Virus genome (UHGV): UHGV-1877853 | Source: a virus | Direction: 5' to 3' (one strand) | DNA: 12,158 nt | Part shown: piece after piece, positions 1,808 through 6,209 of the stretch | Layout: each line of letters opens with the position of its first letter | How positions within the stretch are numbered: position 1 is the first letter of the stretch | Made by a program: the position numbers and the translations under genes | The notes under the pieces: model-generated | Databases searched by the model: none | What the model was told of the DNA's origin: nothing | What the model saw: only the letters and a program-made list of their open reading frames with translations

Positions 1808-2713
1808 ATGCCAAATTTACCGATGGGCGGATCGCAGGGTGAATTACCCTTAGTACCTACAGTAGAAGTTGTTGCTGATGGCATTCCTATGGGGGTGCTT
1901 AATGATGGAACCCCTTATCTAACTCTTTACGGTTTAGCCAAATTATGTGGCATAGATGAAGCACCTCTTCGAATGTTTACATCTAACTGGGAGACTGAAA
2001 AAAATAAGCCAAGAGGACAAAAAGTAGCTGCATACTTAGCTGAGAAAGGATTTAACAACGTTGACCGACTGTATACCCGCGTCATAAATAGCTCAAACGT
2101 TGAAACACATGCTTATCCTGACTATGTTTGTATGGCTATCCTCCGTTACTACGCTCTAGATGCCACCAATTTTGATAGGTCAGTCGCAATAGGTAATTTT
2201 GTTCGCTTGGCTGAGTACACGCTTAAGCGAATGATTTATGAAAAGTCAAATTACAACCCAAATGCTTCAATAGATATCTCATTCGAGAACTATAGAGCAA
2301 GGATTAAGCTAAACGATCAGATACCGACAACTCATTTTGCAGTATTCAGAGAGATAGCTGACATTGCCATGAACCTGATCGGAGGAGGATTCCCAATGGA
2401 TGACACCACATCTTTGGATGGAAGTGTTGGAATTCACTGGGGAAAGTATTGGACAGCTAATGGCCTATCTGAGAAATTCGGGGAAAGGGTGCAGTACCCA
2501 CATCTATTCCCCGAAAATTACAGGCAGTCAGCTGCAAATAAGCATATAAAAGCTTGGATTTATCCTATTGAGGCACTTGGCGTGTTCAGAAAATGGCTAC
2601 ACGATAATTACGCAATGGAAAAACTGCCAAATTACCTTGGGAACAAAAAGATTAGTAATGCCTCCGAGCTATTAGAGTTGATAAAAAAACCAGCACTCCC
2701 AAATAAGCATTGA
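1808..2713 (+). CDS. Hypothetical 301-aa protein occupying the rexA/rexB slot; possible KilA-N/Bro-N-like N-terminal domain; candidate prophage-encoded exclusion/abortive-infection protein (BstA-like hypothesis)
   Basis: Long ORF on the cI strand with an AAGGAA ribosome-binding site 7-8 nt upstream, followed by an intrinsic terminator. The region is visibly AT-rich compared with flanking lambda-like DNA. The translation does not resemble RexA or RexB as recalled. Confidence 0.8.
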   Translation: MPNLPMGGSQGELPLVPTVEVVADGIPMGVLNDGTPYLTLYGLAKLCGIDEAPLRMFTSNWETEKNKPRGQKVAAYLAEKGFNNVDRLYTRVINSSNVETHAYPDYVCMAILRYYALDATNFDRSVAIGNFVRLAEYTLKRMIYEKSNYNPNASIDISFENYRARIKLNDQIPTTHFAVFREIADIAMNLIGGGFPMDDTTSLDGSVGIHWGKYWTANGLSEKFGERVQYPHLFPENYRQSAANKHIKAWIYPIEALGVFRKWLHDNYAMEKLPNYLGNKKISNASELLELIKKPALPNKH

Positions 2714-2892: not shown

Positions 2893-2964
2893 CATACAGA
2901 TAACCATCTGCGGTGATAAATTATCTCTGGCGGTGTTGACATGAATACCACTGGCGGTGATACT
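2893..2964 (+). promoter_or_regulatory. Left operator OL3 (2893..2909), OL2 (2922..2938), OL1 (2946..2962) and promoter pL (-35 TTGACA 2936..2941, -10 GATACT 2959..2964)
   Basis: Lambda-type operator sites readable in the DNA; 17-bp spacer between the -35 and -10 hexamers; oriented toward N. Confidence 0.85.
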
Positions 2965-3003: not shown

Positions 3004-3034
3004 TGCTCTTAAAAATTAAGCCCTGAAGAAGGGC
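3004..3034 (+). promoter_or_regulatory. nutL: nutL (boxA-like TGCTCTTAA 3004..3012; boxB GCCCTGAAGAAGGGC 3020..3034)
   Basis: boxB dyad matches lambda nutL as recalled; boxA differs at its first base from the remembered CGCTCTTAA. Confidence 0.75.
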
Positions 3035-3191: not shown

Positions 3192-3518
3192 ATGGATGCA
3201 CAAACACGCCGCCGCGAACGTCGCGCAGAGAAACAGGCTCAATGGAAAACAGCAAACCCCCTGTTGGTTGGGGTAAGCGCAAAACCAGTTAACCGCCCTA
3301 TTCTCTCGCTGAATCGCAAACCGAAATCACGAGTAGAAAGCGTACTGAATCCGATAGACCTTACAGTGCTGGCTGAATACCACGAACAGATTGAAAGCAA
3401 CCTGCAGCGTATTGAGCGCAAGAATCAGCGCACATGGTACAGCAAGCCACGCAGTGAAATGGGTGTGACTTGTGTTGGTCGCCAGAAAATGAAATTAGGC
3501 AGCAAACCACTTATTTGA
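3192..3518 (+). CDS. N: Antitermination protein N (lambda-like, C-terminal region diverged)
   Basis: Translation from MDAQTRRRERRAEKQAQWK... matches the lambda N arginine-rich N-terminus; GGAG ribosome-binding site upstream of ATG 3192. The track ORF 3060..3518 is an in-frame upstream extension through nutL. Confidence 0.9.
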   Translation: MDAQTRRRERRAEKQAQWKTANPLLVGVSAKPVNRPILSLNRKPKSRVESVLNPIDLTVLAEYHEQIESNLQRIERKNQRTWYSKPRSEMGVTCVGRQKMKLGSKPLI

Positions 3519-3529
3519 GAGGAATTAAT

Positions 3530-4153
3530 ATGTCATCAATCCGCTTAACTACGAGAATGAAAGAGGAAATCGCTCGTAACGCTTTAATTAAGTCTGGGGT
3601 TTTCACTGAACTTGAAGAAGTAACAAAGTTAAAGAACCAGCTTGCACTTGACGCCAGAGTTATTGCGTTTGGCGGGAAAAAGAAAACTGAGGAAGTTGAT
3701 CAGTTATCATCCAAGTTGGTAGCTATAAGTGAAGAACTTGAAAAGATGGGATGTTCATTTTACTCATACGATGTTCGTTCTACTTCAATTTATCTGACTG
3801 CATCTGGCAGAAGGATTGGATGGCATTCATATGGGAAAGACGGCAACGGCGAAGATATATTGCTCCCTACTCCGAACAAAGATAAATGCATGTTTAGCGC
3901 AGAACACGAAATAACAAAAAGGTTTGATGAAATCTGCGCATTGCAACAAAAACTTGAAGCCAAGAAAAAGGATATCGAATCAAATGTATGGGCTGCTTTG
4001 AACTCAGTCACAACAGTTAAGCGACTTATTGAGGTTTGGCCTGAAAGCAAAGAATTGCTACCAAAAGAAGCAGATAAAGCAAGTACAGCACTTCCTGCTT
4101 TACGGGTAGAAGATTTGAATAAGATGATTGGACTTCCTTCCGAGGCCGCATAG
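3530..4153 (+). CDS. Hypothetical 207-aa protein immediately downstream of N (ral/sieB slot)
   Basis: ATG 3530 with a GAGAGG ribosome-binding site that overlaps the N stop; AT-rich; followed by a hairpin and T-tract. No family recognised. Confidence 0.75.
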   Translation: MSSIRLTTRMKEEIARNALIKSGVFTELEEVTKLKNQLALDARVIAFGGKKKTEEVDQLSSKLVAISEELEKMGCSFYSYDVRSTSIYLTASGRRIGWHSYGKDGNGEDILLPTPNKDKCMFSAEHEITKRFDEICALQQKLEAKKKDIESNVWAALNSVTTVKRLIEVWPESKELLPKEADKASTALPALRVEDLNKMIGLPSEAA

Positions 4154-4168
4154 TCGGCCTTTATTTTT
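4143..4168 (+). terminator. Rho-independent terminator
   Basis: AGGCCG (4143..4148) / CGGCCT (4155..4160) stem, then TTATTTTT; the stop codon of the upstream gene lies in the loop. Confidence 0.55.
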
Positions 4169-4216
4169 GGCATAAACAACAGAATAAACACTGCACTGAA
4201 TTATTTGAGGTGAGAT

Positions 4217-4687
4217 ATGACAAAATCACGGAGCGTACCTTTTCCTGAATCAGAAACTGAACATAATGGAATGCCTGTTTTCTGGAGATTCCAAGCGACA
4301 GTTGAAGAAGATGGAATCAAAATATTCGCACTTCAATATATAGCTTTTCATCAGACAGAGCATTATGCATGGTTGGTTCCTGCGCATTGGATTGTTGATT
4401 TTAAACCAGCACCAAATCAGTGGTTACAGGAATGGAAACAAAGGAGAAATAGATATGCAATTAAGAAAGTAGCAAAAAATGCAGAAAGATCTTTTGCATT
4501 CCCAACGAAGAAACTTGCTATTGAAAGTTTATTGCGTCGGAAGAAATACCATTTAATGAGAATAAAACAAGATTTGGCTGTTGTATCAACTCTTGTTGAT
4601 GGGATGAAAAATATTGATACATCAATACCAGATATTGAATATAACTTTGGACACAACCAAGAAACAGAAAATTGGGTATTTTATTAG
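4217..4687 (+). CDS. Hypothetical 156-aa protein
   Basis: ATG 4217 preceded by a GAGGTGAG ribosome-binding site; AT-rich; followed by a hairpin at 4702..4729 and a terminator at 4791..4816. No family recognised. Confidence 0.7.
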   Translation: MTKSRSVPFPESETEHNGMPVFWRFQATVEEDGIKIFALQYIAFHQTEHYAWLVPAHWIVDFKPAPNQWLQEWKQRRNRYAIKKVAKNAERSFAFPTKKLAIESLLRRKKYHLMRIKQDLAVVSTLVDGMKNIDTSIPDIEYNFGHNQETENWVFY

Positions 4688-4790
4688 TACGAATAAGCAC
4701 TGTGTATTCATTCCAACGAGTGAATACACGGAGCAATGTCGCTCGTAACTAAACAGGAGCCGACTTGTTCTGATTATTGGAAATCTTCTT

Positions 4791-4816
4791 TGCCCTCCAG
4801 TGTGAGGGCGATTTTT
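4791..4816 (+). terminator. Rho-independent terminator
   Basis: GCCCTC (4791..4796) / GAGGGC (4803..4808) stem followed by a TTTTTT run. Confidence 0.5.
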
Positions 4817-4837: not shown

Positions 4838-5206
4838 ATGTCAAACATCAAAAAATACATCATTGATTACGACTGGAAAGCATCAATAGAAATTGAAATC
4901 GACCATGACGTAATGACAGAGGAAAAACTTCACCAGATTAATAATTTCTGGTCAGACTCTGAATACCGACTCAATAAACACGGCTCTGTATTAAATGCTG
5001 TATTAATCATGCTGGCGCAACATGCTCTGCTTATAGCAATTTCAAGCGACTTAAATGCATATGGTGTTGTGTGTGAGTTCGACTGGAATGATGGAAATGG
5101 TCAGGAAGGATGGCCTCCAATGGATGGTAGCGAAGGAATAAGAATTACCGATATCGATACATCAGGAATATTTGATTCAGATGATATGACTATCAAAGCC
5201 GCCTGA
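4838..5206 (+). CDS. Hypothetical small strongly acidic protein (122 aa)
   Basis: ATG 4838 with a GAGGA ribosome-binding site; by eye about 22 Asp/Glu against about 8 Lys/Arg; tightly followed by the next gene. Confidence 0.7.
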   Translation: MSNIKKYIIDYDWKASIEIEIDHDVMTEEKLHQINNFWSDSEYRLNKHGSVLNAVLIMLAQHALLIAISSDLNAYGVVCEFDWNDGNGQEGWPPMDGSEGIRITDIDTSGIFDSDDMTIKAA

Positions 5207-5240: not shown

Positions 5241-6209
5241 ATGAGTGAAGTAACAGATTTAGTTGTTATTGAAAAATCAAATGCAATGACTGTATTTCAG
5301 TCTGCCGACCAGATTGAAGAAATCCTTCAAAAGGTTGAACGTGAAGTTATGTCCTTTGTTCCTGATATCACAACGGCAAAGGGCAGGAAGGAGATCGCTT
5401 CTCTGGCGTATAAAGTTGCGCAGACGAAAACATATCTCGATGGTCTTGGCAAAGACCTTGTTGCTGAACTGAAGGAAATTCCAAAGCTAATTGATGCCAA
5501 CCGCAAGACAGTGCGTGATCGCCTTGATGAGCTGAAAGCCAAGGCACGCCAGCCTCTTACTGATTATGAGGAAGAACAGGCGCGGATTAAAGCCGAAGAA
5601 GAAGCTAAGGCAGCAGCTGAAGCTCTCGCAAAGCAAATTGAGTCTGACCATGAAATAGCTATTTTGATGGATCGCGAATTTGACCGCCAAAGAGAAGAGG
5701 CAAGACTCAAAGCGGAGCAGGAAAAGCGAGAGCATGAAGAACGCTTAAAAAGAGAAGCTGAAGAGAAAGCCAGAGCAGAAGCCGAAGCAAAGGCAAAAGC
5801 CGAAATTGAAGCAGCAGCAAGGCGAGAAGCAGAAGCTAAGGCCGCTGCGGAACGAGCAGAGCGTGAACGCATTGAAGCCGAGCAACGAGCACAGCGCGAA
5901 GCAAAAGAGGCAGCAGAACGAGCTGAAAGAGAAAAGCAGGCAGCAATTGAAGCAGAACGCAGAAAAGCACAGGAGGAGGCTGAACAAATCCGTCGCGATG
6001 CTGAAGCAAAAGAGCAAGCCAGAATAGCAGAAGAAAAAAGAATCAAGGACGAAGAAGAGCGTAGAGCAAAGGATAAAGCTCACCGGAAAGAAGTTAATAA
6101 CAAAATACTTGCTGACCTTATCAAGGTTGGCGCATCAGAAGATGTTGCTAAAAATATCATAACAGCCATCGTAAAAGGCGAAGTATTCGCAACAAAAATA
6201 ACCTACTAA
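5241..6209 (+). CDS. Hypothetical 322-aa protein with a globular N-terminal domain, a long E/R/K/A-rich predicted single alpha-helix or coiled coil, and a short C-terminal domain
   Basis: ATG 5241 with a GGAGGA ribosome-binding site; about 170 residues of EAKA/EREA-type repeats between residues ~110 and ~280. Confidence 0.75.
   Translation: MSEVTDLVVIEKSNAMTVFQSADQIEEILQKVEREVMSFVPDITTAKGRKEIASLAYKVAQTKTYLDGLGKDLVAELKEIPKLIDANRKTVRDRLDELKAKARQPLTDYEEEQARIKAEEEAKAAAEALAKQIESDHEIAILMDREFDRQREEARLKAEQEKREHEERLKREAEEKARAEAEAKAKAEIEAAARREAEAKAAAERAERERIEAEQRAQREAKEAAERAEREKQAAIEAERRKAQEEAEQIRRDAEAKEQARIAEEKRIKDEEERRAKDKAHRKEVNNKILADLIKVGASEDVAKNIITAIVKGEVFATKITY

Follow-up and report, generated by a model that had tools for sequence, protein, structure and literature searches.

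An Nmad5-family gene in the accessory slot downstream of N in a lambdoid prophage

Results

An Nmad5-family gene directly follows N

The 12,158-nucleotide (nt) stretch of virus genome UHGV-1877853 analysed here (the window) is a lambdoid prophage immunity region together with its PL arm, in reversed orientation with respect to the lambda map. The gene that directly follows the antiterminator gene N encodes a protein of 207 amino acids (aa), and it is near certain that this protein is a full-length, single-domain member of Pfam family PF18757 (Nmad5, 'Nucleotide modification associated domain 5'). The explanation that best accommodates the evidence as a whole, and to which we give about an even chance, is that this is a PF18757 cassette gene expressed early from PL, the product of which serves as an adaptor in replication or recombination.

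The protein scored 241.8 bits against the PF18757 profile (gathering cut-off 27; E 9.4e-72), in an alignment that takes in the full domain and pairs protein residues 4-203 with profile positions 1-206 of 206. PHROG 1965, a function-unknown group, also matched, and RefSeq WP_001576832.1 is 100% identical; NCBIfam and PADLOC gave no match for the protein. Two homologue searches returned 71 and 254 sequences, all of them PF18757 and all carrying the name given to these relatives by NCBI and UniRef, 'Nmad5 family putative nucleotide modification protein'. The initial annotation had described the gene as unrecognised, a description superseded by the Pfam, PHROG and RefSeq entries that already cover it. 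A search with the family profile collected 2297 cluster representatives at E <= 0.001, nearly all of them stand-alone proteins of ~200 aa, and almost all of the best 150 measured 190-220 aa; a profile search of genome contigs with a narrower alignment gave 4 loci. The protein studied here has the same stand-alone size and the conserved C-terminal module of the family.

The same gene lies 3' of N, at 96-98% DNA identity, in phages HK542 (gp33; HK542_033 / HK542c102), HK244, mEp235, Kapi1 and SH2026Stx1 and in dozens of Stx1a/Stx2a phages, the HK542 and mEp235 copies being 98% identical to the one in the window. These copies share the length of 207 aa, the 11-nt spacing from N and the hairpin described below, and their phage records label them 'hypothetical protein'. 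Among complete E. coli genomes 211 of 5426 (about 4%) carry the gene, in several cases as a 100% identical copy. It is an already catalogued, widespread and ordinary sequence feature: the sequenced lambdoid phages and prophages that carry it number in the hundreds, with Stx-converting phages and ST131-type E. coli among the carriers. Searching the literature for phage names and accession numbers returned nothing on this gene. In many Stx2a-converting phages (e.g. LC616058 11132-11653) the match covers residues 34-207 only and falls in two separate places per record, which suggests that the copy in this lineage is split or 5'-truncated.

The gene and its ribosome-binding site are placed as follows:

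3530-4153 (+), Nmad5-family gene, stop included (ATG at 3530, TAG at 4151-4153, 207 aa)
3519-3523 (+), Shine-Dalgarno sequence GAGGA, 6 nt 5' of the ATG, as read from the sequence

The homologues share the N-terminus MSSIRLT, which confirms ATG 3530 as the start. The N stop codon (TGA, 3516-3518) is separated from it by 11 nt, a spacing kept in 65 of 76 related loci; the initial annotation was right to place the reading frame close behind N, and its figure of 12 bp is corrected to 11 nt. Its description of the gene as AT-rich applies only modestly, the GC content being 40.2% (0.35 at third codon positions, GC3) against 49.5% for N (GC3 0.47) and 44.4% for the window. In the sample of related loci (80 IMG/VR prophage loci, with co-occurrence counted on the 59 that have enough flank) the gene was intact in 78 of the 80 near-identical copies, with 63 alleles and a ratio of non-synonymous to synonymous polymorphism (pN/pS) of 0.34. 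The gene is under purifying selection, and is clearly a genuine gene and no chance open reading frame (ORF). An antisense ORF of 133 aa (3790-4191, minus strand) lies within it, is annotated in GenBank EF120458 as hypothetical protein HK542c101 and is open in 72 of 78 copies; lying opposite a gene with strong family support, it is probably spurious.

The gene is an exchangeable cassette

Comparison with lambda and across the 80 related loci defined the following boundaries:

3192-3518 (+), antiterminator N, lambda type, 108 aa (Pfam N36, E 7e-26; PHROG 271; 91% DNA identity to lambda N)
3438-3510 (+), left mosaic junction zone inside the 3' end of N, where the common C-terminal coding block ...GVTCVGRQKMKLGSKPLI joins different N alleles to the cassette
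4142-4168 (+), intrinsic-terminator-like hairpin with T-run, from the terminator scan and fold (stem 4142-4148 / 4155-4161)
4193-4198 (+), right cassette boundary GCACTG, which coincides with 'boundary sequence 4' of the HK542 immunity-region record (GenBank EF120458) and is also the junction of an insertion carrying a gene termed orf156 (see below)

Homology to lambda runs through PL, nutL and N to position 3493 and resumes at 4150, such that 3494-4149 stands in place of lambda sieB, orf28 and ral. From 4150 onwards the sequence is that lying directly 3' of ral in lambda, with 4150-4198 being lambda backbone. Across the related loci, the left end of homology falls in the last 80 nt of N in 63 of 80 cases, at 3438 in 29, at 3465-3466 in 15 and at 3495-3510 in 19, and the ORFs upstream are N alleles, of at least four kinds, that have their C-terminal block, ...GVTCVGRQKMKLGSKPLI, in common. 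The right end is at 4198 in 59 of the 80 loci and at 4183 in 11. In 10 of the 80 (L017, L018, L037, L046, L048, L054, L061, L074, L076 and L079) a genuine ral separates N from the Nmad5 gene and ends ~25 nt before the latter, which indicates that the cassette sits just 5' of the shared hairpin and T-run and not strictly after N. SieB and Nmad5 co-occurred in none of the 59 loci with enough flank, Abc2 or Gam accompanied Nmad5 in 48 of them, and Ral did so in nine (10 of 80 overall). On this sequence comparison, the Nmad5 gene is a swappable cassette in the slot filled by sieB-ral in lambda. Both proposals made earlier for the locus are borne out here, namely that the gene occupies the lambdoid accessory slot and that it is exchanged horizontally as a cassette, given the consistent ends across 80 loci and the joining to at least four N alleles and, in 10 loci, to ral.

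Predicted expression from PL

The upstream control sites were assigned as follows:

2936-2964 (+), PL promoter, TTGACA-17-GATACT, a 10/12 match in the promoter scan, homologous to the annotated HK542 pL and to lambda
3020-3034 (+), nutL boxB hairpin GCCCTGAAGAAGGGC, a sequence reading that matches the annotated HK542 nutL boxB; the terminator scan reported it as a minus-strand hairpin

The hairpin at the end of the gene is a G+C-rich stem-loop followed by a T-run (TTTATTTTT), with a 7-bp stem, five G-C pairs and a 6-nt loop. Its arms are GAGGCCG and CGGCCTT (4142-4161), followed by TATTTTT, and the loop CATAGT (4149-4154) contains the TAG stop; the T-run spans 4160-4168. The cassette junction falls inside this loop. 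The hairpin and T-run reported in the initial annotation as a strong terminator belonging to the gene are therefore present, while both qualifiers need revision. One of the seven stem pairs is G-U, and the 56-nt fold (-13 kcal/mol) has a z of -0.88 against shuffled sequences, which makes its energy indistinguishable from theirs. Only the 5' arm is the gene's own, being formed by the last Nmad5 codons (GAG GCC GCA); the 3' arm and T-run are lambda backbone. The hairpin is kept in most of 78 copies with minor variants, mostly single mismatches, and no compensatory changes or covariation were found among them.

This is the sole intrinsic-terminator-like site on the plus strand between PL and position 4790, and the scan gave neither a terminator-like hairpin ahead of it nor a promoter-like site between PL and the gene end. 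In lambda, N alone precedes tL1. Together, these considerations would place the Nmad5 gene on the immediate-early transcript along with N, and the lack of a promoter-like site between PL and the gene leads us to expect silencing by CI in the lysogen. We infer that the gene would be expressed from PL on the same message as N, with no need for N and under CI repression in the lysogen. The N-dependent expression suggested earlier does not fit this arrangement, since the gene lies 5' of the first intrinsic terminator and co-transcription with N without antitermination would be expected.

Protein properties and predicted structure

The protein has an isoelectric point (pI) of 6.8 and a net charge of 0, with 32 acidic and 32 basic residues and no acidic segment; it is hydrophilic, with a maximum 19-residue hydropathy of 0.6 and no membrane segment. 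Two AlphaFold2 models, built from alignments of 26 sequences (mean predicted local distance difference test score, pLDDT, 84.7) and 51 sequences (87.7), agree with each other. In both, four long helices (residues 8-22, 24-47, 50-72 and 127-158) form a bundle, a small β-hairpin domain (~residues 86-125) interrupts it between helices three and four, and three short helices (163-182) follow. Tail residues 184-207 have a pLDDT of 46-56 in both models.

It is this C-terminal region that the family conserves best:

4001-4138 (+), conserved C-terminal module, residues 158-203: LNSVTTVKRLIEVWPESKELLP, a variable linker, then LPALRVEDLNKMIGLP
C-terminal peptide of the protein: LPALRVEDLNKMIGLPSEAA

The corresponding family motifs are TTxK[KR]LLxxWPExxELLP and, after the variable linker, LPAxxVxDLNxxIGLP, with a mean column conservation of 0.69 and 0.77, respectively, versus 0.36-0.46 for the body. 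The protein matches the invariant or near-invariant columns at T162, L166, W170, P171, E172, L176, P178, L188, L196, N197, G201 and P203. A tail that is the best conserved part of the protein and yet remains unpacked in the models carries the usual signature of a docking peptide. G, P, L and W account for most of the residues invariant in the family, alongside R43, E172 and N197, a set that, judged from the alignment, does not look catalytic.

No enzyme-like signature or fold was found for the protein. The homology search, structure prediction and fold search that had been proposed for the gene converged on its own family, for besides the full-length PF18757 match the only structural relatives in BFVD were other Nmad5 proteins, with no relative of solved structure. 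Neither sequence nor fold resembled SieB, Ral, Ocr-type DNA mimics or Gam.

Replication and recombination genes accompany the family

The genomic surroundings of the family were tallied from 397 loci, which collapse into 49 clusters at 70% Nmad5 identity, with six genes on each side covered by our own ORF calls. Helicase, primase, PolA, single-stranded DNA-binding protein (SSB), exonuclease or recombinase genes lay within these six genes in 26 of the 49. A PD-(D/E)XK exonuclease (DUF3799 or DUF2800) or a Sak4 or Erf recombinase was present in 17, and an exonuclease or recombinase was at most two genes away in nine. Moreover, a cI-type repressor gene precedes Nmad5 by one to six genes, on the same strand, in 12 of the 49 loci; this corresponds to the early-left-operon position found in the window, where the operon also carries Erf, an HK97 gp40-like protein and Abc2.

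The order of these genes varies widely. The commonest non-E. coli cluster reads DUF2800, SSB, Nmad5, PolA, and a Providencia prophage reads cI, Nmad5, a Pro-rich ORF, a DUF2800 PD-(D/E)XK nuclease, an Enc34-type SSB and PolA. In two siphovirus contigs the order is primase, ResIII helicase, one other gene, Nmad5, DUF3799 exonuclease, one other gene, AAA_24/Sak4, and in Pseudomonas phage Amjad_SA it is DUF3799, Nmad5, AAA_24. The N4-like Salmonella phage As2 has PolA, ThyX, Nmad5, an HNH insert, a PD-(D/E)XK nuclease and primase; in Vibrio phage Athena1, Nmad5 is just 5' of the gene for replication protein O, and in Edwardsiella phage eiAU it is 3' of a helicase-primase gene. Different lineages arrange these genes differently and yet retain the same set, a pattern that suggests a functional linkage.

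Relatives in Yuavirus, Dhillonvirus and T-even phages

The Nmad5 family name was reportedly coined by Iyer et al. in 2013 from the placement of the Yuavirus gene in a hypermodification cluster. The Yuavirus SN1 and M6 proteins are small and stand-alone, belong to the same Pfam family (E 3e-33) and are ~32% identical to the protein studied here over its last 87 residues only. Their operon encodes aGPT-Pplase, a kinase, radical S-adenosylmethionine (rSAM) and pyridoxal phosphate (PLP) enzymes and a hydroxymethylase, none of which occurs in the window, and the Nmad5 gene lies between aGPT-Pplase1 and the pyrimidine hydroxymethylase in what is a thymidine-hypermodification cluster (PMC9476957).

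Genetic data come from Dhillonvirus, where the Nmad5 substitution K296E in phage SM_S22 allows escape from the Tmn defence (Yamashita et al. 2025; PMC11846954). In the same study, deletion of the gene left the phage viable and still sensitive to Tmn, the gene proved toxic to clone, and the real anti-Tmn protein was the product of another gene. The Nmad5 proteins of SM_S22 and SMA8 (CDS6/CDS7) have the same Pfam domain (E 1e-55) and share the module TTxKKLIxxWPE...LNxxxGxP with the window protein. SM_S22 K296 aligns with R165 of the latter (4022-4024), inside the conserved TTxK[KR]L motif. The two differ in that the Dhillonvirus protein is 334 aa long with an 80-aa N-terminal extension, is 31% identical over the C-terminal 100 residues only, and lacks an early-operon setting, its gene being on the opposite strand among head genes in a lytic siphovirus.

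A parallel can be drawn with RIIB of the T-even phages. Tmn is directly activated by T2 RIIB, which has been called an early replisome-associated protein (2026 preprint, PMC13001434). RIIB and Nmad5 are both early phage proteins linked to Tmn through single-residue escape changes. They differ in that RIIB has an N-terminal helix-turn-helix-like region and is a direct trigger of Tmn, whereas the link between Nmad5 and Tmn is genetic only, deletion of the gene not having abolished sensing (PMC11846954). Homology of Nmad5 to T4/T2 RIIB was considered and set aside (hhalign probability 1.3%), and the parallel is functional only.

Discussion

A possible adaptor at replicating or recombining phage DNA

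The mechanism that we favour, tentatively and at somewhat less than an even chance, is that of a non-catalytic adaptor whose C-terminal module docks at replicating or recombining phage DNA. The protein would be made at once upon infection or induction, alongside N. As a soluble, charge-neutral helical bundle with a flexible conserved tail, it would serve as an adaptor and not as an enzyme. The C-terminal module (LPAxxVxDLNxxIGLP after the TTxK[KR]LLxxWPE helix) would then dock with a putative partner where phage DNA is being replicated or recombined, a site proposed on the grounds that the family travels with replication and recombination genes in unrelated phages. Such an adaptor may be helpful to the phage yet dispensable.

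Several observations weigh against this proposal. The neighbourhood count is descriptive, being made without a formal background model; 23 of the 49 loci have no replication or recombination gene nearby. For the lambdoid copies the nearest recombination gene, that for Erf, lies five genes (2.6 kb) further downstream. The Dhillonvirus homologue lies among head genes and its deletion is viable, which argues that it is no core replication factor, and the sole genetics on the family concerns a defence system, Tmn. The slot itself is familiar for exclusion and anti-restriction genes, and the SN1 copy is found in a thymidine-hypermodification cluster. A P22-like viral contig (L101) encodes a distant Nmad5 homologue (1094-1654) in one early operon together with a Dam methylase and a member of the Tad6 (anti-Thoeris) family. 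Finally, the predicted independence from N leaves possible Rho-dependent termination aside.

Counter-defence, exclusion and base modification

The main alternative, itself doubtful, is that the protein acts in counter-defence, as an immediate-early inhibitor or decoy that uses its C-terminal peptide to bind directly to, and so neutralise, a nuclease or sensor of host immunity (restriction, RecBCD-linked or Tmn-like). It would suit such a role to be encoded by the first gene 3' of N, before any terminator-like site, in a mosaic cassette of lower GC3 in the sieB/ral slot, and a non-enzymatic binder architecture fits an inhibitor as well. The Dhillonvirus gene, dispensable and with a point mutation that alters the outcome of Tmn, points the same way, as does the distant homologue near Tad6 and Dam; that Tad6 gene is the sole anti-defence neighbour among the sampled contexts. 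Against the idea, the protein had no PADLOC match and no likeness to Ocr, Ral, Gam, Tad or other known inhibitors. A DNA mimic of the Ocr/ArdA type is ruled out by the pI of 6.8 and the lack of an acidic segment. No family match to the 66-aa Ral protein (Ral/Lar restriction alleviation) was seen, and ral is a distinct gene in the 10 loci that carry it. Features of a Gam-type RecBCD inhibitor were likewise not found; a Gam analogue, suggested by the recombination-module context, is further weakened by the presence of Abc2 or Gam alongside, and the co-occurrence counts indicate that Nmad5 is no substitute for Abc2, Gam or Ral. The Dhillonvirus deletion left Tmn sensitivity unchanged and the anti-Tmn protein is a different gene product (PMC11846954). 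Moreover, the family is very broad, much more so than is typical of counter-defence genes, uniform in length and embedded in the replication modules of lytic phages. The 'NMAD' domain that appears in DefensePredictor defence systems was also considered and proved to be Nmad2, not Nmad5.

A broader proposal, which we regard as unlikely, would join the adaptor reading to the Tmn data: Nmad5 may be a large, misnamed class of early adaptors that dock via the C-terminal peptide on the host or phage replication-recombination apparatus and that are also a pattern read by Tmn-type membrane NTPase defences, like RIIB. If so, the lambdoid copy would aid replication or recombination and at the same time be a liability in the face of host immunity, a double role that would account for its carriage as a swappable cassette.

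It is very unlikely that the gene protects the lysogen, by superinfection exclusion or abortive infection, as a replacement for SieB. In lambda, SieB is a membrane protein made in the lysogenic state. Lambda SieB/Esc and Ral share with the Nmad5 gene the PL-operon position 3' of N and the same downstream backbone and T-run; sieB is replaced positionally, the two genes never occur together in the 59 related loci, and the same prophage has another lysogen-protecting gene, that for BstA, in the rex slot. Yet the protein shows no sequence or fold similarity to SieB or Ral and, unlike SieB, has no hydrophobic membrane segment, and Pfam and PADLOC gave no SieB match. The gene has no promoter-like site of its own, and the repression by CI expected in the lysogen argues against a lysogen-protecting role. 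The family is also common in strictly lytic phages (N4-like, Dhillonvirus and Yuavirus).

No hypermodification of DNA is known from lambda-type phages. A part in a base-modification pathway, for instance as a scaffold or specificity factor for thymidine hypermodification, is highly improbable here: the SN1 and M6 gene placement, the ThyX gene adjoining Nmad5 in the N4-like Salmonella phage and the DNA methylases or dUTPase near some loci speak for it, but a hypermodification cluster accompanies Nmad5 in only one of the 49 non-redundant loci (SN1), neither the 12-kb window nor the PL arm as annotated for the identical prophage encodes a kinase, aGPT-Pplase, hydroxymethylase, glycosyltransferase, methylase or other modification enzyme, and the protein has neither a catalytic-type residue set nor an enzyme-like fold. 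We do not think that the protein itself chemically modifies bases. The association on which the family name is based is thus absent from the lambdoid copies, and the database name probably misleads, there being no modification machinery around them and the protein not being enzyme-like.

The value of the locus lies in this mismatch between database name and genomic context, and in the experimental entry point that it provides. The family comprises more than 2000 clusters at 50% identity and is biochemically uncharacterised. Since HK542 and mEp235 can be plated on E. coli K-12, they offer an easy experimental entry to it; such work would provide an annotation for thousands of phage genes and could also clarify what it is that Tmn senses in siphoviruses.

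Neighbouring genes and other features of the window

An identical region is present in E. coli ZH063 (PGAP annotation), where it adjoins sbcB. The remaining genes of the window are:

minus strand, cII and cro
976-1689, cI, lambda type
1808-2713 (+), BstA gene, 301 aa, in the lambda rexAB slot between cI and PL
downstream of the Nmad5 gene, in order: orf156, Ea10/DUF2528, a 322-aa coiled-coil ORF, cIII and kil
then Erf, the HK97 gp40-like gene, Abc2, Ea22-like, DUF551 and ASCH genes, and finally xis and int

Rfam and tRNA scans of the window returned nothing. BstA, an abortive-infection defence protein, was identified through PHROG 6287 (E 5e-135) and PADLOC (BstA, E 3e-106); PGAP labels it hypothetical, and it was found in only two of the 59 related Nmad5-carrying prophages. 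Compared with HK542, the window has BstA instead of the HK542 immunity-region genes and adds the orf156 insertion.

A second terminator-like hairpin (4790-4811, plus strand; 8 bp followed by TTTTTT) lies just 5' of the Ea10/DUF2528 gene (4838-5206, plus strand), which is 98.5% identical to lambda ea10. With the hairpin at the end of the Nmad5 gene, this gives each small accessory gene here a hairpin of its own. The 322-aa ORF (5241-6209, plus strand), between Ea10 and cIII, is very rich in Ala, Glu, Lys and Arg and is predicted to form a long coiled coil (AEAKAKAE repeats); it had no Pfam match and PGAP labels it hypothetical.

The orf156 gene (156 aa; 4217-4687, plus strand) belongs to PHROG 1636, a function-unknown group, and has a very low GC3 of 0.24. 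It is carried by a clean 498-bp insertion (4199-4696) with respect to both lambda and HK542, which is flanked by the 6-bp direct repeat GCACTG (4193-4198 and 4691-4696) and was found in seven of the 59 related loci. In appearance this segment is a moron-type element inserted where the cassette ends.

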